From positions 25,384 through 89,383 of IMG/VR virus record IMGVR_UViG_3300033121_001944: a DNA stretch of 64,000 nucleotides; one strand, 5' to 3'. The stretch is from a virus. Its lineage: Duplodnaviria > Caudoviricetes. Shown piece by piece: positions 22,849 to 44,603 of this stretch (positions within the stretch are counted from its first letter, which is position 1; every line of letters begins with the position of its first letter). The translations under genes and the position numbers were made by a program. A model generated the notes under the pieces. That model was not told the DNA's origin. It was given only the letters and a program-made list of their open reading frames with translations, and searched no databases.

Positions 22849-24489
22849 CTAGATCTGTTGAATCCTATTAATTAATAGCGAGCCTTCTCGCCCCTTATTG
22901 CCTCGCGAGCCCATTACGAGGACTTTATTGCCTTGAAAAAGTTTAGAGCGAAACTCTAACCACACTTCAGGAAATGCGGTCGCGCTCAGCTTTTGGGTCC
23001 CATCTTTCAGTTCTATAAAAGCCATTTCTCTACCAGCATCTTTACCTTTGGTAAGATACAACTTAACATTATTGATTGTAGCAGCAATTCTGTATTCGTC
23101 AAGCTTTTTCTTTTCAAGAAACTCTTCACATGTACAGTTTGCAACTTCTCCCCCGTCTACCTCTGAGCAGGTGAAGGCGTATCCTAAAAAGTGGTTTTCC
23201 CACTCAAATAATTTGCTCTTAGGGTCCATCATAGAAATCGGCGGCTTTTCTAGCTGGCTGGCAATCTGCATAACTTTATTTAAGGTGACCTGGGTAGCGC
23301 AAAGCTTGCCCTTCCCCTTACCCATATGAGCGACCTCTCTTAAGGCATCTAAAAACGACCCTTTATAATCTCTGACAAATTCCTTAATGCCCTCATTGAG
23401 CTTACCAAATTTATCTGATTCATACAGCATTTTTGTGCGGGTCTTACCAATGTAGTCGATAGCTCCGCTCTTTATTAGAGCCTCTGCCGCGTCTGATGAG
23501 GTATGGTCTAAATGCCACATCATTTCATTCCAAGTGCTGCCGCTGCTGGCAATATATTCATGTCCATTAAAGGACTCCCAGAATTTAGCCAATTTGGTAG
23601 CCCCGACACTTTTAATGCGGGCTAGACCAAAATGAATCGTACCTTTCTCAAGTGAGAAATCTGCATTGCGCACCCTCAGGTCCGGCTTTACAATCTTCAC
23701 TTTAAAATTTAAGGCATCATCTATAACGGCACCAATATCTTCAATAGTCTTAGCGTGCTCTAGTTCAGATAGGAAAAATACGCGGGGAAAATGAGCTTTT
23801 GGATAAGCTGAGAAATAGAGGGCGTCCAGAGAATAGGCAAGCGAATGGCTTTTATTAAAACTGTAACGTTGCCCCGCCTCGATAATAGAAAATATAGCTT
23901 CTGCCTCCTCTTGGGTCAGCTTTGCATGAGATTTACACCCGTCTATGAATTTATTTTTAAACTTAGCCATTAGTTCTGGCAGTTTCTTAGCACATGCCTT
24001 TAGTAGGGCGTAAGACTCACTTCCATTAAACCCCGCCAACTCCGTAGCGATCTTCATGTAGTCTTCTTGGTAGAGTCCTAAGCCGTACCCATCTTTTAGA
24101 ATTTCTGACAAACTAGGGTGAATTGGAACTACTGCATCCACCCCGTTCTTTCTGTCAATATAGTGCTTTTTAAGAGTTTTACCGTCCATTTCGGCATCTC
24201 CCACGCCGGGGCGGATAATAGAAATGACGTCGCTCAACTCTTCTTCCGTGATCGGTTTGCACTGATAGGCGGCATTCTGACCGAGAGGGGTCTCCAATTG
24301 GAAAACCCCTTTTGTCAAGCCGGTAGAAATAAGTCCCCAAATACGGGGGCATCTAATATTGGCTTTTTCCGGTTCGTAATTAACGCCAATGATCTCGCCA
24401 TCTTTTTCGGCGACTTCCCATTGGCAACCACAATCAAACGTCTTTAAGTACCTGCGGACGCCATGTAACTCTTGGTGCGACTCGTTCAT
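22849..24489 (-). CDS. dnaE: DNA polymerase III alpha, C-terminal part (fingers, HhH, OB)
   Basis: GVFQLE, LYQED, YSFNKSHSLAYS, FGLARIKSVG, EMAFIELKDG. Confidence 0.9.
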   Translation of the reverse strand: MNESHQELHGVRRYLKTFDCGCQWEVAEKDGEIIGVNYEPEKANIRCPRIWGLISTGLTKGVFQLETPLGQNAAYQCKPITEEELSDVISIIRPGVGDAEMDGKTLKKHYIDRKNGVDAVVPIHPSLSEILKDGYGLGLYQEDYMKIATELAGFNGSESYALLKACAKKLPELMAKFKNKFIDGCKSHAKLTQEEAEAIFSIIEAGQRYSFNKSHSLAYSLDALYFSAYPKAHFPRVFFLSELEHAKTIEDIGAVIDDALNFKVKIVKPDLRVRNADFSLEKGTIHFGLARIKSVGATKLAKFWESFNGHEYIASSGSTWNEMMWHLDHTSSDAAEALIKSGAIDYIGKTRTKMLYESDKFGKLNEGIKEFVRDYKGSFLDALREVAHMGKGKGKLCATQVTLNKVMQIASQLEKPPISMMDPKSKLFEWENHFLGYAFTCSEVDGGEVANCTCEEFLEKKKLDEYRIAATINNVKLYLTKGKDAGREMAFIELKDGTQKLSATAFPEVWLEFRSKLFQGNKVLVMGSRGNKGREGSLLINRIQQI

Positions 24490-25117
24490 AAATTCCTAGA
24501 AACCTTTTAATAATGTCGGCACAGTCTATAACGTCTTTTTTAGCGTCGTGAGCACCAAATTTATCAATGCCGAAGAAGTCTCGCAAGCTATCTAAACTTA
24601 AGCTTTTTGGGCGATCATCAGCCCACATAAACCATTGGGTAGACAGATCTAGTAGGTCAACAACCTCATTTTCTCGCTTGCTAAATGGGATCTTCTTCTT
24701 GAATTTCTCATTATAGCGAGCTGTAATCGGTAGGTCAAATCCGCGAATGTTTTGTCCGCCAGCCATTGGGGTTTCGTCAAATTTACTACTTTTAGCATAA
24801 CTCTTGACGTATTTATAGAATTCATCCCAAGCTTCCTTTTCTGGGACCCCTTGGAGCCATCGCTCGTGAACTTCACTTGCGGTACACCGCTGATGTTTAG
24901 AGTGCCACTCTATCGTTTGTTGATGAGCGGCAAAGTATCCTTCTTGATCAGCATCATCTGGACGAACATCTATATTAAAGACTTCGTCCACTAGAATGTC
25001 AAGATTCCTCAGGTCCATTGGGACTGCCGCTATCTGGACTATCCCCAATTGGTTGATCTTGTCCGGCGACCAGTCCGTCTCGTAATCGAACACTATCAAA
25101 TAACGATTCCTGCTCAT
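24434..25117 (-). CDS. DEDDh 3'-5' exonuclease (epsilon/RNase T-like)
   Basis: VFDYET, GQNIRGFDL, HDAKKDV. Confidence 0.85.
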   Translation of the reverse strand: MSRNRYLIVFDYETDWSPDKINQLGIVQIAAVPMDLRNLDILVDEVFNIDVRPDDADQEGYFAAHQQTIEWHSKHQRCTASEVHERWLQGVPEKEAWDEFYKYVKSYAKSSKFDETPMAGGQNIRGFDLPITARYNEKFKKKIPFSKRENEVVDLLDLSTQWFMWADDRPKSLSLDSLRDFFGIDKFGAHDAKKDVIDCADIIKRFLGIYERVAPRVTWRPQVLKDV

Positions 25118-25307
25118 TCAAATCTTCTTTCTTTTTCTTTTTCTTGGGTTTATCAATCTTCTCAACGAACATCATGGTGGGGAACTCTCGCGCCTCACCT
25201 GTATGGCAGTTTTCGCAAATCCCTTTACGCTTATCTTTTAGAATAAAATCGTTATCGCCAAGTCGGAAGTAATCTCCGACGTTTAACATACATAACCTAG
25301 GCTTCAA
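24999..25307 (-). CDS. small hypothetical protein
   Basis: Coupled to the upstream gene; N-terminal 52 aa resemble 25297-25479; C-terminal tail overlaps the exonuclease. Confidence 0.5.
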   Translation of the reverse strand: MKPRLCMLNVGDYFRLGDNDFILKDKRKGICENCHTGEAREFPTMMFVEKIDKPKKKKKKEDLNEQESLFDSVRLRDGLVAGQDQPIGDSPDSGSPNGPEES

Positions 25308-25479
25308 GTTTTTCTACCTCCTGATTGGCATCGAACGTTTTCTTGACATCTAAGTTTCCGTCAACATGAGCGTTATAAAGGATCTTGCAACAGCTCTTCT
25401 TAACGGGAACAACTTTGATCCAAGTCAGTCCGTCATATTTAAATTTTGCACCCAGAGCGATAGAACTAAAACGCACCAT
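25297..25479 (-). CDS. small hypothetical protein
   Basis: 60 aa, overlaps the dnaE-N stop. Confidence 0.55.
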   Translation of the reverse strand: MVRFSSIALGAKFKYDGLTWIKVVPVKKSCCKILYNAHVDGNLDVKKTFDANQEVEKLEA

Positions 25480-27127
25480 TTTTAAGTCTCCTTCTGATAT
25501 AATCAGCTTTATCTAAGAGGTCCAACCCGAGTAAATCTAGCTTTACAAGCCCAAGCTTTTCAGCATCATCCATATTTACGCCAACGACATATCTGCCCGC
25601 TGAAACGTCCCATATGAGTGGGGCTTTCTTGTAGATCGGCTCGTTAGCTAGAGCGTAAGCACTCGCATGGCGCCCCCTACCTTGGATAACCTTATCTATC
25701 GCGATGGCGGCTTGAAACTCTTGACCGTACGGTCCATCAAATTCCTTGCTACACCACTGGGCAAATTCTTCCATATTATTAATACACCACAGAATGAGAG
25801 AGTCGGTGCCTGTCTCATCCTTCTGGACCTTCAGCTCTGGGGCGATTTTTGCCTCGGGAGGCATTTTCTTCGTGATAAAATTCTGTTCAGAAGCATCAAC
25901 CCCTAGTGCCCTAAATACCGTTTTGAGACCAGCCGCCCCTTTTAATGTGTTAAATGTGGCAAGTTGAGCGAATCTCTCTGGTCCATACTTACTCTCGATA
26001 TAAGCGATAATGTCATCTCGTTTAGATGGGGGGACGTCCGTATCGATATCTGGCAACCCGCCACGGTCGGCGCTATAAAACCGCTCAAATAGGAGGTTAT
26101 ACTTGATGGGGTCCACATTAGTGATCCCAGTTAAATAAGATGTTAGGCAGCCCCCAGCACTTCCTCGTCCCACCCCCACGAGAATGCCTTGAGACTTAGC
26201 CCACCTAATAATGTCCTGCATAATGACGAAATAGCCAGAAATATCGGCTTTAGCTATGACGTCTAACTCTAGCTTAATCCGATCAATATATTCTTGAGAA
26301 TTCAGCCCCTTCGACTTATAGCCGTCACGGCAAAGCTGTCGCAAATAATCTTCCTGGCTAACCCCCTTTGGCGTGTCGAAGTGGGGCAGCTCTTGCTTAT
26401 ATGTAATGGAAAACTCTTCGATCTGACTATAAATCTTGCCAGTATTATCAATCTCTTCCTGAGAGAGCCCCCGCGATCTAAGATCTTCCTCCGTTAGGAT
26501 ATAGTAAACATTCTCTGAGAATAAGCGATGCGACGACCCTTTGATTGTAGTCTTTAAATAGTTTGCAAATAAATATTGGTTGATGTGCCACTGGCTGGGT
26601 TTCAAATAATGGTTGGGGGAAATAGCAACCTTTGGGAGGCAGGACTTTCTTAATTCGTCAAATTTCTCGGGGTACGAGATCGGGTCCAGCCCAATGAAAA
26701 CATCTCCCTTATCGCAATGACGCTCAAAGATGTCAACGAACTTATCTCTAATAACGACAATTAGGTTGCCGCGTAACCTCTGAATAAATTCAAAGGCGTC
26801 CATCCTGGGTCCCATTTTGTAGTTAGCTGGGTCATTTGCTTTATACACTATATATAATAGCTCTTCCCACCCAGCTTTATTTTTGGCATAGACGTTCACA
26901 TACGTTTCCTCTTCTCCACCTATAAGCTTGAGCTGCATCCCTAGCATGGGCTTCAGACCCGCTTTCTTCATGGCAGAGTCGTATTTAACACACATAAATA
27001 ATTGGTCTACATCAGCCAGCCCGATAGATAGATAGCCAGCTTCCTTAGCGAACTGTGCGACCTCGTCTGGGAAGATCTGAGAGACGAGTGGCGTGCCGTG
27101 TGTTAAACACATCAAGGGAACGTACAT
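25466..27127 (-). CDS. dnaE: DNA polymerase III alpha, N-terminal part (PHP + catalytic palm)
   Basis: GVGRGSAGGCL, LLFERF, LPDIDTD, GRHASA, KLDLLGL. Confidence 0.95.
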   Translation of the reverse strand: MYVPLMCLTHGTPLVSQIFPDEVAQFAKEAGYLSIGLADVDQLFMCVKYDSAMKKAGLKPMLGMQLKLIGGEEETYVNVYAKNKAGWEELLYIVYKANDPANYKMGPRMDAFEFIQRLRGNLIVVIRDKFVDIFERHCDKGDVFIGLDPISYPEKFDELRKSCLPKVAISPNHYLKPSQWHINQYLFANYLKTTIKGSSHRLFSENVYYILTEEDLRSRGLSQEEIDNTGKIYSQIEEFSITYKQELPHFDTPKGVSQEDYLRQLCRDGYKSKGLNSQEYIDRIKLELDVIAKADISGYFVIMQDIIRWAKSQGILVGVGRGSAGGCLTSYLTGITNVDPIKYNLLFERFYSADRGGLPDIDTDVPPSKRDDIIAYIESKYGPERFAQLATFNTLKGAAGLKTVFRALGVDASEQNFITKKMPPEAKIAPELKVQKDETGTDSLILWCINNMEEFAQWCSKEFDGPYGQEFQAAIAIDKVIQGRGRHASAYALANEPIYKKAPLIWDVSAGRYVVGVNMDDAEKLGLVKLDLLGLDLLDKADYIRRRLKNGAF

Positions 27128-38241: not shown

Positions 38242-38391
38242 TCAGAGGATACAGCTAAACATGCTAAATCCTACTAGAAGTATAGACAACAAAATAGATA
38301 AAATCAAGGCTCCAACCAGCGTTTTTATTAATCTGGGAAAAAACCACAAACAGAAGAAGCTGATTATAAAAAGGAGCGGCAGGCTAAGCAT
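38242..38391 (-). CDS. small two-TM membrane protein (not in ORF track)
   Basis: MLSLPLLFIISFFCLWFFPRLIKTLVGALILSILLSILLVGFSMFSCIL, 49 aa; fills the gap and overlaps the thyX stop. Confidence 0.55.
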   Translation of the reverse strand: MLSLPLLFIISFFCLWFFPRLIKTLVGALILSILLSILLVGFSMFSCIL

Positions 38392-39052
38392 TCAGCTCTT
38401 CCCAAATCTTCATCGTTTCCGGATAAAGCCCCATCATAATCTCTTTCATAGCCCAGGCAACCCGCTGAATTTCCCATTGGGCGTGTGGATGAAGGCGGAG
38501 TTTTAGAAAATGACAGGCATTATGCAAGCTGACCGTTCCATAGTACTGAGTGTACAGATTTTGTGGAAGAATCATGCGAGCCATTTCGCGGGCTACGCCA
38601 GCCTCAATCATTCGCTGATATCTAGCGTAGGATATCTCACAATGTTCGCGCACCATCCAGTCTAGCTCCTCCGACTGAAAATCTTCATCGCTCATCTGCT
38701 TGTTATTTTTGGACTGGGTTCGCCAGCAGGGCGGGTAATAGAATTGGATATCGTCTGATGTATACCGGCGTGAAATTTCATTCACCATCCAGGTTCTGTG
38801 ACGATGATGTTGACTCCGCACAAACAGGGGCACGGTGAAGCGAAAACTAACGCAAACCTGCTCTAAAGGGCTCGTGTGTCCATTAACTAGCAAATAACGA
38901 ATAAGCTTTCTATCTGCATCATCAAAGATTGTTTTATGTTTACCATAACTAACCCGCGCCGCATTTACTATGGTGAGGTCGGTCCCCATATGATCAATGA
39001 GTTCAACCTTACCAATACCGTCACCGTACAAATCAATTGATTGCATTAACAT
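38384..39052 (-). CDS. thyX: FAD-dependent thymidylate synthase
   Basis: IVNAARVSY; HTSPLE; RHR...NEISRRY; AREMARMILP; HAQWEI. Confidence 0.97.
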   Translation of the reverse strand: MLMQSIDLYGDGIGKVELIDHMGTDLTIVNAARVSYGKHKTIFDDADRKLIRYLLVNGHTSPLEQVCVSFRFTVPLFVRSQHHRHRTWMVNEISRRYTSDDIQFYYPPCWRTQSKNNKQMSDEDFQSEELDWMVREHCEISYARYQRMIEAGVAREMARMILPQNLYTQYYGTVSLHNACHFLKLRLHPHAQWEIQRVAWAMKEIMMGLYPETMKIWEELNA

Positions 39053-40079: not shown

Positions 40080-40157
40080 TTAACAAGTCCTACTATCCAA
40101 AGAACAGCCCGCCAAAAATATAACCGTATAGAAACGCTAGAATTACTGCCCAAATCA

Positions 40158-40270
40158 TAGTGGAGATGGCGGGAATTGCACCCGCGTCCAAGCGACTGTG
40201 ACCTTCTTTACCTATGGGCGTGTTCGGCTTCCCTTGCGGGACCAGTCGTTGTCGAATCTTTTTCATCCCC
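40158..40270 (-). ncRNA. ssrA: miniature tmRNA-like RNA (tRNA-like domain with 44-nt insert)
   Basis: GGGGAUG/CAUCUCC acceptor with G3.U; GAUUCGAC; P2 CGACUG/CAGUCG; GGAC; T-arm GCGGG-UGCAAUU-CCCGC; 3' ACUA. Confidence 0.85.
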
Positions 40271-40504
40271 AGTCCATTCCAAGATTGCCTCTCCCTTATC
40301 GTTATGCTCATACTGGAGATAGCCTCGATCCAGCCCGCCCTTTTTCAAAGTATGATAGTTCTGCTTAATGTCAACAGAAAGGGAGAGAGCGATGGCAAAA
40401 CCAAATAGGGCGCCTAAAGTAGCTCCAATAGTCGCCCCTAACATAAACGATCCTTTGGCTAGGGTAGCCTCTATCGCCATTCTTTCGTCAAGTCGAACTG
40501 ACAT
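40208..40504 (-). CDS. membrane protein whose 3' end overlaps the mini-tmRNA
   Basis: TM segment FMLGATIGATLGALFGFAIALSLSV; stop lies inside the RNA insert. Confidence 0.5.
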   Translation of the reverse strand: MSVRLDERMAIEATLAKGSFMLGATIGATLGALFGFAIALSLSVDIKQNYHTLKKGGLDRGYLQYEHNDKGEAILEWTGDEKDSTTTGPAREAEHAHR

Positions 40505-41733: not shown

Positions 41734-41807
41734 TGCCTCTACAGAGAGTCGAACTCTGATAAGTGCGGATTGAAAGCCGACTGCTCAAACCGTTGAGCGT
41801 TAGAGGC
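41734..41807 (-). tRNA. tRNA-like element, nominal Glu(UUC), atypical
   Basis: Perfect 7-bp acceptor GCCUCUA/UAGAGGC; D GCUC/GAGC; T CAGAG-UUCGACU-CUCUG; weak anticodon stem with C-C mismatch; A at position 8. Confidence 0.65.
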
Positions 41808-42301: not shown

Positions 42302-43867
42302 CTATGAATTAAAGTTTGCAATCACTGAAGGAGCGGTTGCATCAAAACCAACAATATCCAGGGAGCCTGGGTCGGACGGGTCGGCAATACTAAAGCCCGT
42401 AGCGGTCATGCCGCAGACGATTAGCTTCGCATTAATACCCATCTTATCCCGATACTGTTTTAGTGCCTGAATGGGATGCATGGTTCCCGACCACGTTTCG
42501 TTATCCGTATAGACGATGAAACAATCGACGGGAATCTTCTTCGCCAGGGCGTCTTGCATTGGCAATGAACAGTCCGTACGCCCCCAAGGGGTATTCGCAA
42601 TAGTTTGCGTTACCGTTTGGAGATCCATTCCCTTCAGGAGGTTAATTGGCACCATCTTTCCATTAAAGCCAGCCGTATACGTAAATGGCTCCTTATTAAT
42701 AGATACCATTGCCATCACACCAGCAGCCTCTCCTGGCGTTACATTAGACTTAGCCACGCCTCCGCCGAACATGGAGCCCGAGCAGTCAATGCCTAGATAA
42801 AATCGCCTGTTAGTAGGCTTCACATATTGGAAACACTTATAGAACGCATCATTCAGCGCTGAAAGCACCTGTTGATCTACCGTCCACGAGTTCGATCCAA
42901 GGAATCCGCGACCTTGACCGTACGTCTTCGTTGCAAGCAAAACGCTAAACGGATGAATGTGAGCCTTTTGGAGAGCGACCTCGTCCGACAATACACTAAC
43001 CACTTTTCGGCTAGCTGCACTCATCGGGGTCAGTAGACCAACCTTGCTCATCTTACCCAGATTTTTAATCATAGCCGTCAAAGGCATCCGCTGTAGGAGG
43101 GCGTCCCAAACGGCAACATGGTTTAGATGCTCCGTAGGAATAACCTCCCGGACAAGCCGGTGCTGCTCAATCAGATCTACGACTCGGTTAATTGGCGCCG
43201 TCTTGATCTCTTCAACAACCTGCAAATATTGGTCAGCCTCGCTTTCAGTCGGCTCCCACTTATCTCGCTGGGCGACATACTTAGCCACATTATTAGTCGA
43301 TGAATCGACAAACTTAGGGCGAGTTAGTCGCAGAACGTCTTTTTGGGACCAGCTATTTCGGTTATTGTACTTAGTAACCTGATAAGCCAAATCACTAGCC
43401 GACTTGCTCGTATACCAACTTTTAATAAGCTTACGTGCCGTCTTGCTGCCTCCAGTCAGATTTTTGCGATTCTCAGTAAACTCCATTAGATGGGTACCAA
43501 TTCGCACAACCTTCAGGAAGGTCTCGCGTAACTCCGCTACAGTATAATCTATCGTCAGTAGTGATAGAGCAAAGATTGAGGGCGAAATCTTAGGAGCATC
43601 GTACGAAGCCCGCTCAATCTCCTTTAGGGTACGAGCAAGATCCGCCTTTGCACATCGTAGAACGACGTCCGCATTCTCTACGGTCATTTCTCGTTCTGAA
43701 CAGTAGTAAGTCCCACCAGCATTGCCGAGGATGAGGAAGCGGGTTAGCTGATCCCAATCTGAGATTTGGAAAACATAGCCGCCCGCATTATTCTTAACCT
43801 GCTTCTTGCCCTGCATGGGCTGAGACTGCGGGGTAGCCTTTTGGAAAACGTGCTTAGCGTAAGTCAT
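42302..43867 (-). CDS. rsr: Ro60/Rsr TROVE-domain RNA-binding protein
   Basis: KNNAGGYVF...LTRFLILG...GGTYY; YQVTKYNNRNSWSQKDVLRL; MPLTAMIKNLGKM; vWA DCSGSM; YTDNETW; DIVGFD. Confidence 0.96.
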   Translation of the reverse strand: MTYAKHVFQKATPQSQPMQGKKQVKNNAGGYVFQISDWDQLTRFLILGNAGGTYYCSEREMTVENADVVLRCAKADLARTLKEIERASYDAPKISPSIFALSLLTIDYTVAELRETFLKVVRIGTHLMEFTENRKNLTGGSKTARKLIKSWYTSKSASDLAYQVTKYNNRNSWSQKDVLRLTRPKFVDSSTNNVAKYVAQRDKWEPTESEADQYLQVVEEIKTAPINRVVDLIEQHRLVREVIPTEHLNHVAVWDALLQRMPLTAMIKNLGKMSKVGLLTPMSAASRKVVSVLSDEVALQKAHIHPFSVLLATKTYGQGRGFLGSNSWTVDQQVLSALNDAFYKCFQYVKPTNRRFYLGIDCSGSMFGGGVAKSNVTPGEAAGVMAMVSINKEPFTYTAGFNGKMVPINLLKGMDLQTVTQTIANTPWGRTDCSLPMQDALAKKIPVDCFIVYTDNETWSGTMHPIQALKQYRDKMGINAKLIVCGMTATGFSIADPSDPGSLDIVGFDATAPSVIANFNS

Positions 43868-43892
43868 TTTAAAATCCTTAAAGTCTTAAAAA

Positions 43893-43961
43893 TTAGGGCA
43901 AGTTAACATCAAAGGGTGTTTTTCAAAACCAATTTGATAACCCTCCGAAATTCAACCCTAA
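43893..43961 (-). ncRNA. Y-RNA-like element 1 (short, UUAUC loop)
   Basis: UUAGGG-UUGA...CUUG-CCCUAA terminal stem, 69 nt. Confidence 0.7.
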
Positions 43962-43968
43962 ATAAGGG

Positions 43969-44102
43969 AAACTGAGGCAAGGTGGCAGAATGCAGTTTTT
44001 TCGCGCTTTACCACTAAGCTAATTGACCTTACGATCAATACCAGATTCGAACTGGTGACTCGCACTTAACAGGTGAGAACGCACTCCAATCAACCTCAGT
44101 TT
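43969..44102 (-). ncRNA. Y-RNA-like element 2 (YrlA-like, permuted tRNA module with GUU loop hairpin)
   Basis: AAACUGAGG-UUGA...CUUG-CCUCAGUUU; T-arm ACCAG-UUCGAAU-CUGGU; 7-bp acceptor-like stem capped by GUAA; D-arm GCUU-AGUGGUA-AAGC. Confidence 0.85.
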
Positions 44103-44109
44103 GTATTAG

Positions 44110-44234
44110 TGGGGCAAGTTTGTATGCTGGTAACACGTCTTCACCCTTACCATTCGGGATACCGCCCTTTCGAGCGATGTTGGAATCGAACCAACTTTCA
44201 AAGATTTACAAGGTAACCCAACAAATCAACCCCA
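44110..44234 (-). ncRNA. Y-RNA-like element 3 (YrlA-like)
   Basis: UGGGG-UUGA-UUUG...CAAA-CUUG-CCCCA; T-arm GUUGG-UUCGAUU-CCAAC; acceptor-like AUCGCUC-GAAA-GGGCGGU; D-arm CCC-GAAUGGUAA-GGG. Confidence 0.85.
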
Positions 44235-44241
44235 TGTTTTG

Positions 44242-44356
44242 TGGAGGTAAATATACGATTCTAAGGTAGACATACTGACATACTCTCACCACTAAAGTAA
44301 GTGAGGTTCTGAGCTAAGCTCATGCGGTGCCCCCGCACTAAAATCTTCAACCTCCA
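44242..44356 (-). ncRNA. Y-RNA-like element 4 (degenerate three-hairpin module)
   Basis: UGGAGG-UUGA...UUUA-CCUCCA; hairpins UGCGG/CCGCA, UGAGC/GCUCA, CUCAC/GUGAG with AGUGG. Confidence 0.65.
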
Positions 44357-44358
44357 AG

Positions 44359-44428
44359 CAACGGGCGAAGGATTCGCACCTCCAAAACTCACGATATCAG
44401 TGAGCGTCGCGCTAATGACAGACCCGTT
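44359..44428 (-). tRNA. degenerate tRNA-like element (loop UGAUAUC)
   Basis: Acceptor AACGGGU/GCCCGUU; D GUC/GAC; CUCAC/GUGAG arm; T-arm GGAGG-UGCGAAU-CCUUC. Confidence 0.6.
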
Positions 44429-44435
44429 AAAAAAA

Positions 44436-44499
44436 TTAGAGGCAAGTAGTTGTCTGGACCGTTTCAATTGCAATGATAATCCAAACTATCAACCTCTAA
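44436..44499 (-). ncRNA. Y-RNA-like element 5 (short, UUAUC loop)
   Basis: UUAGAGG-UUGA-UAG...CUA-CUUG-CCUCUAA, 64 nt. Confidence 0.75.
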
Positions 44500-44500
44500 G

Positions 44501-44571
44501 TTCTGCCCCCTGGACTTGAACCAGGACCGTTCCCCATGAACAAGAGAAGTGCTACCTTACACCAAAGCAGA
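44501..44571 (-). tRNA. tRNA-like element with non-canonical anticodon loop (UGUUCAU)
   Basis: Acceptor UCUGCUU/GGGCAGA; D GUG-UAAGGUAG-CAC; T-arm CCUGG-UUCAAGU-CCAGG. Confidence 0.65.
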
Positions 44572-44575
44572 ATTC

Positions 44576-44603
44576 ATTATATGGTCAACTACCATATTTG
44601 CAA
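44576..44603 (-). promoter_or_regulatory. sigma70-like promoter for the RNA array, with internal palindrome
   Basis: TTGCAA-16 nt-TATAAT ending 5 nt before the first tRNA-like element; ATATGGT-N5-ACCATAT at 44579-44597. Confidence 0.7.

Follow-up and report, generated by a model that had tools for sequence, protein, structure and literature searches.

The DNA window analysed here is 64 kb long (bases 25384-89383 of an 89,383-base IMG/VR phage record with a CheckV completeness of 57%; called WIN where it is compared with relatives), and its minus strand encodes at 40158-40270 a 113-nt RNA that is a transfer-messenger RNA (tmRNA) reduced to its tRNA-like domain (TLD). When the whole window was searched with Rfam 15 cmscan (4227 families), the RNA matched the tmRNA family RF00023 from 40270 to 40158 with 51.9 bits (E 1.4e-17); the curated gathering score of this family is 47 bits. 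The alignment spans model positions 1-374, and 44 nt stand where the model has 304 positions, which comprise the four pseudoknots, the tag frame and helix 5. Counting RNA nt 1 as 40270, and taking as the clade WIN plus four related contigs (L047, L044, L053 and L057; n=5), the parts of the gene are as follows.

40158-40270, minus strand: mini-tmRNA gene, a tRNA-like domain with a 44-nt interior (RF00023 match; covariation in L047, L044, L053 and L057)
40264-40270, minus strand: 5' acceptor strand GGGGAUG, nt 1-7, carrying the G3 of G3.U70; pairs with 40162-40168
40251-40263, minus strand: D-loop analogue AAAAAGAUUCGAC, nt 8-20, which fits the Rfam consensus GGaUUCGAC
40243-40251, minus strand: 5' strand of the P2 helix, nt 20-28; 9 pairs, 100% kept
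40231-40240, minus strand: interior hairpin with a GNRA tetraloop, CCC-GCAA-GGG, nt 31-40; compensatory change in 3/3 pairs
40199-40230, minus strand: apparently unpaired conserved interior, nt 41-72, with CCGAA..CGCCCA and AAGGU, conserved in 5/5; in-frame UAA at 40208-40210
40186-40198, minus strand: 3' strand of P2, CAGUCGCUUG, including the first G of the GGAC junction, nt 73-85 (Rfam and clade alignments)
40169-40185, minus strand: T arm GCGGG-UGCAAUU-CCCGC, nt 86-102, a 5-bp stem and 7-nt loop; stem invariant in the clade
40158-40168, minus strand: 3' acceptor strand CAUCUCC, discriminator A (40161) and tail CUA (sequence and Rfam alignment)

The 7-bp acceptor stem (GGGGAUG/CAUCUCC) with its G3.U70 wobble, followed by A73, constitutes the identity set of alanyl-tRNA synthetase (AlaRS). 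The D-loop analogue is stem-less, corresponds to the tmRNA motif GGAUUCGAC and ends in GAUUCGAC; in tmRNAs it makes up, with the GGAC junction and the T arm, the elbow to which SmpB binds. Within it GA-N-UCGAC is unchanged across the clade. P2 comprises 9 bp with one bulge (CAACGACUG / CAGUCG-C-UUG), position 55 in the T loop (40172-40178) is a G, and CCA is not encoded, the gene ending in ACUA. A fold of the single sequence gives matching helices (-38.2 kcal/mol, z -2.1). The RNA has none of the pseudoknots PK1-PK4 and no helix 5, and the 44 nt between the P2 strands hold one 3-bp GNRA hairpin and otherwise unpaired sequence. A preliminary description had proposed a TLD-only mini-tmRNA here from the sequence, listing GGGGAUG/CAUCUCC with the G3.U pair, GAUUCGAC, P2, GGAC, the T arm, the A discriminator and the 44 nt. 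All of these are present, and the RF00023 match together with conservation and covariation in four related phages bears the identification out. It had also suggested a check with tmRNA models: the Rfam covariance model detects the gene, but ARAGORN, run on the window, makes no call for it and reports no tag. Routine annotation by ARAGORN would overlook mini-tmRNA genes.

Relatives were reached through protein homologues of the neighbouring 221-amino-acid (aa) protein and of a small upstream open reading frame (ORF) in Logan and ENA assemblies. One Logan assembly holds an identical copy of the RNA, and four diverged relatives hold an RNA of 111-113 nt at the equivalent position, namely L044 (a 109-kb contig), L053 (92 kb), L057 (58 kb) and L047 (a contig of only 576 nt). 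Their flanking proteins are 36-72% identical to those of the window, the upstream protein being 72% identical in L047 and about 40% in L044, L053 and L057, and the last three keep the gene order Ro60, PD-(D/E)XK, 132-aa, 109-aa, ~61-aa, small membrane ORF. Across these phages the RNA is 74-94% identical, against 47-63% for the 230 nt upstream and 29-49% for the 150 nt downstream, and relatives score 55.8 (L044), 38.4 and 25.6 bits with RF00023. Of the 221-aa protein's homologues, three (L048-L052) have unrelated surroundings and are uninformative. The 5 kb around the locus had no megablast match among 50,697 phage records, the 221-aa neighbour found nothing as a query in the related-locus search of IMG/VR, and two clade-specific DNA patterns had no match there.

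In the five-sequence alignment (A4) there are 24 proposed pairs, and 120 of the 120 pair cells are standard. Compensatory changes occur in six of the pairs, two in the acceptor (5:105 and 6:104), one at the end of P2 and three in the interior hairpin. At P2 pair 28:73, WIN and L047 have G-C where the other three have C-G; pair 27:74 occurs as U-A or U-G, and the hairpin reads CCC-GCAA-GGG in WIN and GGG-GAAA-CCC or GGC-GAAA-GCC in relatives, its loop being GCAA or GAAA. As a control, sliding the 3' partners by 1-3 columns leaves merely 38-50% of cells paired. Run unguided, RNAalifold recovers all four helices; the extra ones it draws (43-45:68-70 and 52-54:59-61) were discarded, having no compensatory support and being broken in some sequences. 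G1-C72, G2-C71, G3.U70 and A73 are invariant in all five members, the T loops vary (UGCAAUU, GGCGGUA, UUCAAUU, GGCAGUU), and the GGAC junction reads GCAC in three of the five. Because all pairs are kept, compensatory changes occur and the RNA is more conserved than its flanks, this is a maintained gene, under long-term purifying selection at the RNA level.

Given this conservation and covariation, the RNA is neither a chance match nor the product of a recent deletion, and it is not a fragment in decay or a scrap of an attP site. It is scarcely credible that a non-functional remnant lies here, whether a decaying deleted tmRNA or the attP fragment of a phage that integrates into ssrA. Phages of the latter kind do carry the 3' part of ssrA (PMC10865867, PMC9004378), and the T loop has drifted in relatives, but both halves of the acceptor stem are present and the mini form is kept, with its compensatory changes and its excess of conservation over the flanks, at about 40% protein identity. 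An attP origin is further contradicted because there is no tyrosine integrase in the 57%-complete record and no integrase in three near-complete genomes of a marine family of similar RNAs, described next.

The mini-tmRNA class appears to be widespread in phages. A pattern scan found a marine, 97-nt TLD-only family in 17 IMG/VR contigs (L003, L005, L007, L008 and L010-L022; for example L005:6963-7059, minus strand), which reads GGGGGAA...UUCCUCC-ACCA with G3.U70, has an interior with four GUCAC repeats and has no match in deposited phages. Three phages of this family, 97-100% complete and 35-45 kb long, have no SmpB, integrase or Ro60. Metagenomes also yielded three complete mini-tmRNAs of 125-126 nt, L033:3133-3235 (= L040, L041), L035:590-692 and L038:1958-2062, whose interiors share the motif GUAG-N-GA(U/A)AA..GGC..UAAGC. 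In L033 an upstream ORF stops within the 5' acceptor strand and a downstream AUG overlaps CCA. In every complete mini form recovered (the clade, the 97-nt family, L033/L040, L035, L038 and the phage DS6A, below) G1-C72, G2-C71, G3.U70 and A73 are kept, and acceptor positions 4-7 differ between lineages; this sequence pattern points to selection for alanylation. The T loop UGCAA, with G in place of the universal U55, recurs in unrelated mini-tmRNA lineages of phages (WIN, the marine family, L035 and L002); DS6A, L033 and L038 keep UUCGA.

In a blastn search of phage records, the RNA aligned with nothing but the T arm and acceptor at the 3' side of phage tmRNAs, either full-length or permuted. 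Such tmRNAs occur in numerous large phages (among them Menderavirus, Bixzunavirus and Streptomyces phages), and the Menderavirus and Xanthomonas phage matches turned out to be complete permuted tmRNAs rather than mini forms. A pattern scan of 185,579 prokaryote species, with one genome per species, found no bona fide mini-tmRNA, returning 3' parts of normal genes and one deleted ssrA. This last, L066:4804-4879 in a Pseudescherichia metagenome-assembled genome (DAMBQR010000027.1), is an E. coli-like chromosomal ssrA beside an integrase gene with its entire middle deleted, apparently at a CCGAGG repeat; the deletion could be real or an assembly artefact.

The kind of RNA is already published. 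An entry 'Mycobacterium phage DS6A (TLD only)' is given by Hudson, Lau and Williams, who state that a molecule resembling that of DS6A is a strong inhibitor of tmRNA whether or not it can be charged, perhaps because it titrates SmpB (PMC4131195); a 2025 tmRNA database paper repeats the DS6A case and the inhibition and adds plastid forms without a coding sequence (CDS) (PMC11915505). The preliminary description was thus right that reduced phage tmRNAs had been reported. I located the DS6A gene at JN698994 28478-28560 (tmRNA Website tmID 11587): it is 83 nt long, aligns with RF00023 end to end (43.2 bits) and ends ACUA. Like the WIN RNA it is phage-encoded, has an acceptor with G3.U70 and A73, a D-loop analogue, a T arm, a short P2 and an ACUA end, and has no pseudoknots, no tag and no SmpB gene in its phage. 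The WIN RNA therefore fits the DS6A type, in which a single colinear gene of some 100 nt encodes the whole TLD and lacks a message domain, and adds another member to a thinly documented kind, since the literature documents a TLD-only phage tmRNA for this single phage. The sequence similarity is, however, confined to universal TLD motifs. The DS6A RNA occupies an intergenic gap in a 60-kb temperate siphovirus and has almost no interior, whereas the 113-nt WIN RNA has a conserved 44-nt interior with a covarying GNRA hairpin, overlaps both flanking ORFs and lies near Ro60. What is new is this hairpin, the overlap with both ORFs and a neighbourhood of Ro60, Y RNA-like and tRNA-like elements.

Other TLD-bearing RNAs are more distant. 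Canonical tmRNA (SsrA; RF00023, RF04321) shares the sequence and structure of the TLD and the alanine identity set, but the WIN RNA has no PK1-PK4, helix 5, frame-setting element before a resume codon or degron tag. Organellar tmRNAs without a CDS (jakobid mitochondria; Mallomonadaceae plastids, about 65 nt) are also TLD-only and presumed partners of SmpB (PMC11915505); they are, however, the sole tmRNA of their organelle and work with imported SmpB, whereas the WIN RNA presumably competes with a full-length host tmRNA. Engineered TLD-only fragments (Mao et al. 2009, as cited in PMC4131195; the TLD-SmpB crystal constructs of PMC3022190) have the architecture of the WIN RNA and bind SmpB. An engineered molecule of this type strongly inhibits E. 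coli tmRNA and reportedly need not be chargeable to do so (PMC4131195), whereas the natural phage RNAs keep their charging determinants. SmpB both binds the TLD and enhances its aminoacylation (PMC3022190).

Two ORFs on the same strand, absent from the preliminary description, overlap the RNA.

40208-40504, minus strand: upstream ORF, 98 aa, a small membrane protein (single hydrophobic segment); the 5' half of the RNA supplies the final 21 codons, and the interior UAA serves as stop
40093-40158, minus strand: downstream hydrophobic micro-ORF, 21 aa, MIWAVILAFLYGYIFGGLFFG; its AUG starts on the last base of the RNA

In 10 of 10 known homologues no stop interrupts the upstream ORF between the conserved core (...LEW) and the UAA, a stretch that takes in the 5' half of the RNA; homologues with the RNA-encoded tail are P0022-P0029 and the L044 ORF. 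RNA base 1 is the first base of a Gly codon. Within the tail the codons UCG ACA ACG ACU are invariant, third positions included, and the flip of the hairpin changes the encoded GPARE to RGETQ; judged by this codon pattern, conservation of the tail is RNA-driven. The micro-ORF peptide has a motif, FLYGYxxGGxF, that is retained, alongside synonymous changes, in L047, L053 and L057, and because the substitutions in L047 are synonymous the micro-ORF is probably a real gene. Its AUG overlaps the RNA in WIN, L053 and L057, is replaced by AUU in L047, and in L044 the micro-ORF has moved. Across the window and its relatives (L044:9531-9623, and downstream of the RNA in L053 and L057) this conserved hydrophobic micro-protein has 21-30 aa, and it is encoded just upstream of the gene for a 123-aa membrane protein. 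A protein of 57-72 aa read across the entire RNA (the P0001 frame) was rejected, as L053 and L057 have stops in it.

Because the RNA ends inside or on its flanking ORFs, its excision must cut the upstream message before the stop and leave the downstream message almost leaderless. The overlap is a genuine peculiarity of the clade. Such cutting might itself be the function, although I consider this improbable. In a cis-acting 'tRNA punctuation', RNase P and RNase Z would cut the mRNA between the membrane-protein ORF and the micro-ORF and so set their expression, for instance through a downstream mRNA left with almost no leader, and the excised RNA would be jobless. The upstream ORF always enters the RNA, the micro-ORF AUG sits on the final base of the RNA in WIN, L053 and L057, and in all four long contigs the PD-(D/E)XK ORF likewise has a second tRNA-like element at its 3' end. 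Any tRNA-like fold would do for this purpose, however, and the retention of the UCGAC D-loop analogue, P2, G3.U70 and A73 would go unexplained. Moreover, L044 has no overlapping downstream start, L047 has AUU rather than AUG, and the stand-alone mini-tmRNAs of other phages lie in different contexts.

The unpaired interior has the consensus AA(G/U)CCGAA..CGCCCA....AAGGU, and a short reading frame in it (GCC GAA CAC GCC CAU AGG UAA, encoding AEHAHR) begins 2 nt past the hairpin. It bears on what I regard as an unlikely but serious alternative, a productive rescue with no tag or a minimal one: the alanylated mini-tmRNA with SmpB would take over the stalled peptide without adding a degradation tag, and the ribosome would be freed by drop-off and hydrolysis or by reading the frame of 6-7 codons to its stop. 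The alanine identity set, invariant in all phage mini-tmRNA lineages, would be needed for this and not for a sponge. Every clade member has an in-frame UAA 6-7 codons past the (G/U)CC codon that follows the hairpin, and the resulting tails (AEHAHR, AENAQR, AETAQSN, SENAQRN) have no hydrophobic degron; AEHAHR has no ..LAA-type end. In the putative tag codons third positions are invariant and the first and second vary.

The frame itself speaks against this alternative in several ways. It coincides with that of the upstream ORF, whose tail it is, so that the UAA has a simpler explanation; the putative resume codon, 2 nt past the stem, has no single-stranded U(-5)A(-4) context, which SmpB uses for frame setting (PMC3022190, PMC2481249); and in two relatives the first codon is UCC, not GCN. 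In a normal tmRNA the message is carried in a ring of 81x97 to 96x128 Angstrom encircling the 30S subunit's beak, at the end of the long H2 helix (PMC8363625), and on these dimensions a 44-nt loop closed by 9 bp could presumably not form such a ring unless P2 melted. Finally, neither an RF-1/ArfB domain nor a peptidyl-tRNA hydrolase (Pth) gene was found in the record. Since the frame is that of the upstream ORF, has neither the context nor a degron and lies in a loop that is too short, I treat the RNA as tag-less.

A self-contained circuit would combine excision and rescue, but it is very unlikely. RNase P excision would strip the upstream message of its stop and strand ribosomes on it, and the alanine-charged RNA would rescue them through the interior frame, adding Ala and AEHAHR. 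If true, this frame would be the smallest known tmRNA message, and it would reproduce the C-terminus of the uncut protein while avoiding the degradation tag of the host.

The reading that I lean towards, if only somewhat, is that this is a functional TLD-only tmRNA gene whose RNA is excised, alanylated and bound by host SmpB and EF-Tu, and which thereby competes with the tmRNA of the host. The RNA would be transcribed inside an early or middle operon of the minus strand; a consensus scan found no sigma-70 promoter or terminator dedicated to it, and matches in the region are no commoner than in shuffles. It would be excised by host RNase P together with a nuclease that processes the 3' side of tRNAs (probably RNase Z), as one expects of an RNA whose termini fall within or on neighbouring ORFs and whose gene lacks CCA. 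A host CCA-adding enzyme would complete the CCA (no gene for one was found in the record), and host AlaRS would add the alanine. The charged RNA would then bind host SmpB and EF-Tu and rival the full-length host tmRNA in access to SmpB and to the vacant A site of ribosomes that have stalled, and the predicted outcome during infection would be less SsrA tagging and less of the downstream proteolysis and RNase R action. The partner would have to be host SmpB, because none is encoded in the record or in the three near-complete marine-family genomes; the preliminary description had noted no smpB in the window, and this holds for the full 89,383-base record (57% complete) as well.

Several observations weigh against competition of this kind. 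Two relatives fall under the Rfam cut-off, at 25.6 and 38.4 bits. The T loop is non-canonical and variable, with G55 in WIN and GGCGGUA or GGCAGUU in relatives, and with T loop and GGAC both non-canonical in three of five clade members, recognition by elbow partners is not assured. The conserved interior, with its GNRA hairpin and CCGAA..CGCCCA, has no role in the scheme. Lastly, inhibition by a TLD-only RNA needs no alanylation (PMC4131195), so that a pure SmpB sponge leaves the strict conservation of G3.U70 unexplained. To judge from their sequences, the fixed charging determinants suggest that the RNA works on the ribosome in its aminoacylated form and is more than a sponge, and for this reason productive tag-less rescue stays the main rival to competition with host tmRNA. 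The preliminary description had put forward two functions, an SmpB/EF-Tu decoy that inhibits trans-translation or a tag-less rescue RNA; both are reasonable proposals and agree with the invariance of the alanine identity set.

The locus shows that selection can maintain the TLD-only form across deep phage divergence with its charging determinants intact, which argues that phages manipulate host ribosome rescue rather than just carry broken tmRNA genes. Trans-translation is an antibiotic target, and many bacteria cannot live without it. A small RNA from nature that could block or bypass it would be a ready probe of SmpB and tmRNA function.

The phage has an estimated size of about 150 kb and no close relative among the 50,697 deposited phages (no DNA match; polymerase at most 31% identical). 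Its record encodes a split DnaE-type polymerase, DnaB, ribonucleotide reductase (RNR), ThyX and glycosyltransferases, and the RNA sits in a long minus-strand block of replication and nucleotide-metabolism genes. No full-length tmRNA or second tmRNA piece was found in the 89-kb record (57% complete). Three neighbouring features belong to the same strand.

42302-43867, minus strand: Ro60 gene (TROVE and vWA_Ro60; Pfam E 2e-36 and 1.6e-59), 2 kb upstream of the RNA; given as context, any functional link being putative
43968-44100, minus strand: candidate YrlA-like Y RNA upstream of Ro60 (RF02553 32.6 bits, below the gathering score of 69; E 6e-4)
41734-41807, minus strand: tRNA-like element at the 3' end of the PD-(D/E)XK ORF (RF00005 44 bits; ARAGORN 'tRNA-???', 2-nt anticodon)

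The proximity of Ro60 invites comparison with YrlA-type Y RNAs (RF02553; PMC4201824), which like the WIN RNA are tRNA-mimicking non-coding RNAs found near Ro60, in phages among other places; that of M. smegmatis is cleaved by RNase P and receives CCA (PMC4201824). YrlA, however, has a Ro60-binding stem and no alanine acceptor stem for charging, whereas the mini-tmRNA has no Ro-binding core. The YrlA-like RNA of L044 reaches 45.2 bits with RF02553, and in WIN several Y-like RNAs before Ro60 (42302-44603, minus strand) share the closing core GGUUGA...CUUGCC; the mini-tmRNA has neither a match to RF02553 nor this core. A Ro60-binding motif in its interior was considered and dropped: KCCGAANNCG is no commoner than chance, and the Y-like array has a different core.

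These comparisons bear on whether the mini-tmRNA might be a decoy for some other factor that binds tmRNA or tRNA, such as RNase R (regulated via tmRNA-SmpB), a host anti-phage nuclease or the Ro60 of the phage itself, which I think quite improbable. As a precedent, the t(m)RNA fragments employed by phage AcrIIIA1 bind both RNase R and Cas10-Csm (PMC11662646), and all relatives have Ro60 and its Y-like RNAs 2 kb upstream of the gene. The GGUUGA...CUUGCC core is missing from the mini-tmRNA, however, and other phages with mini-tmRNAs have no Ro60.

Further features of the neighbourhood may be recorded briefly. A promoter-like site (44603-44576) and a terminator-like hairpin (42261-42239) bracket the Ro60 and Y-like region on the minus strand, and a tRNA-Glu, which does not encode CCA either, precedes the Ro60 gene in WIN. 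The tRNA-like element is kept at L044:7086-7160, L053:6682-6755 and L057:6701-6775, and the PD-(D/E)XK endonuclease ORF that overlaps it is the second ORF of the clade to run into a tRNA-like RNA. A TnpB (OrfB_IS605) gene lies upstream of Ro60 at L053:2611-3774. The ThyX gene is uninterrupted in the window (38384-39052) but split by an HNH-domain intein in relatives (L044:10669-12333, L057:10265-12013), and the RNR of L044 (L044:1-909) has a LAGLIDADG insertion. The DnaE-type polymerase (window 22849-27127, minus strand) consists of two separate ORFs of 553 and 546 aa with other genes between them.

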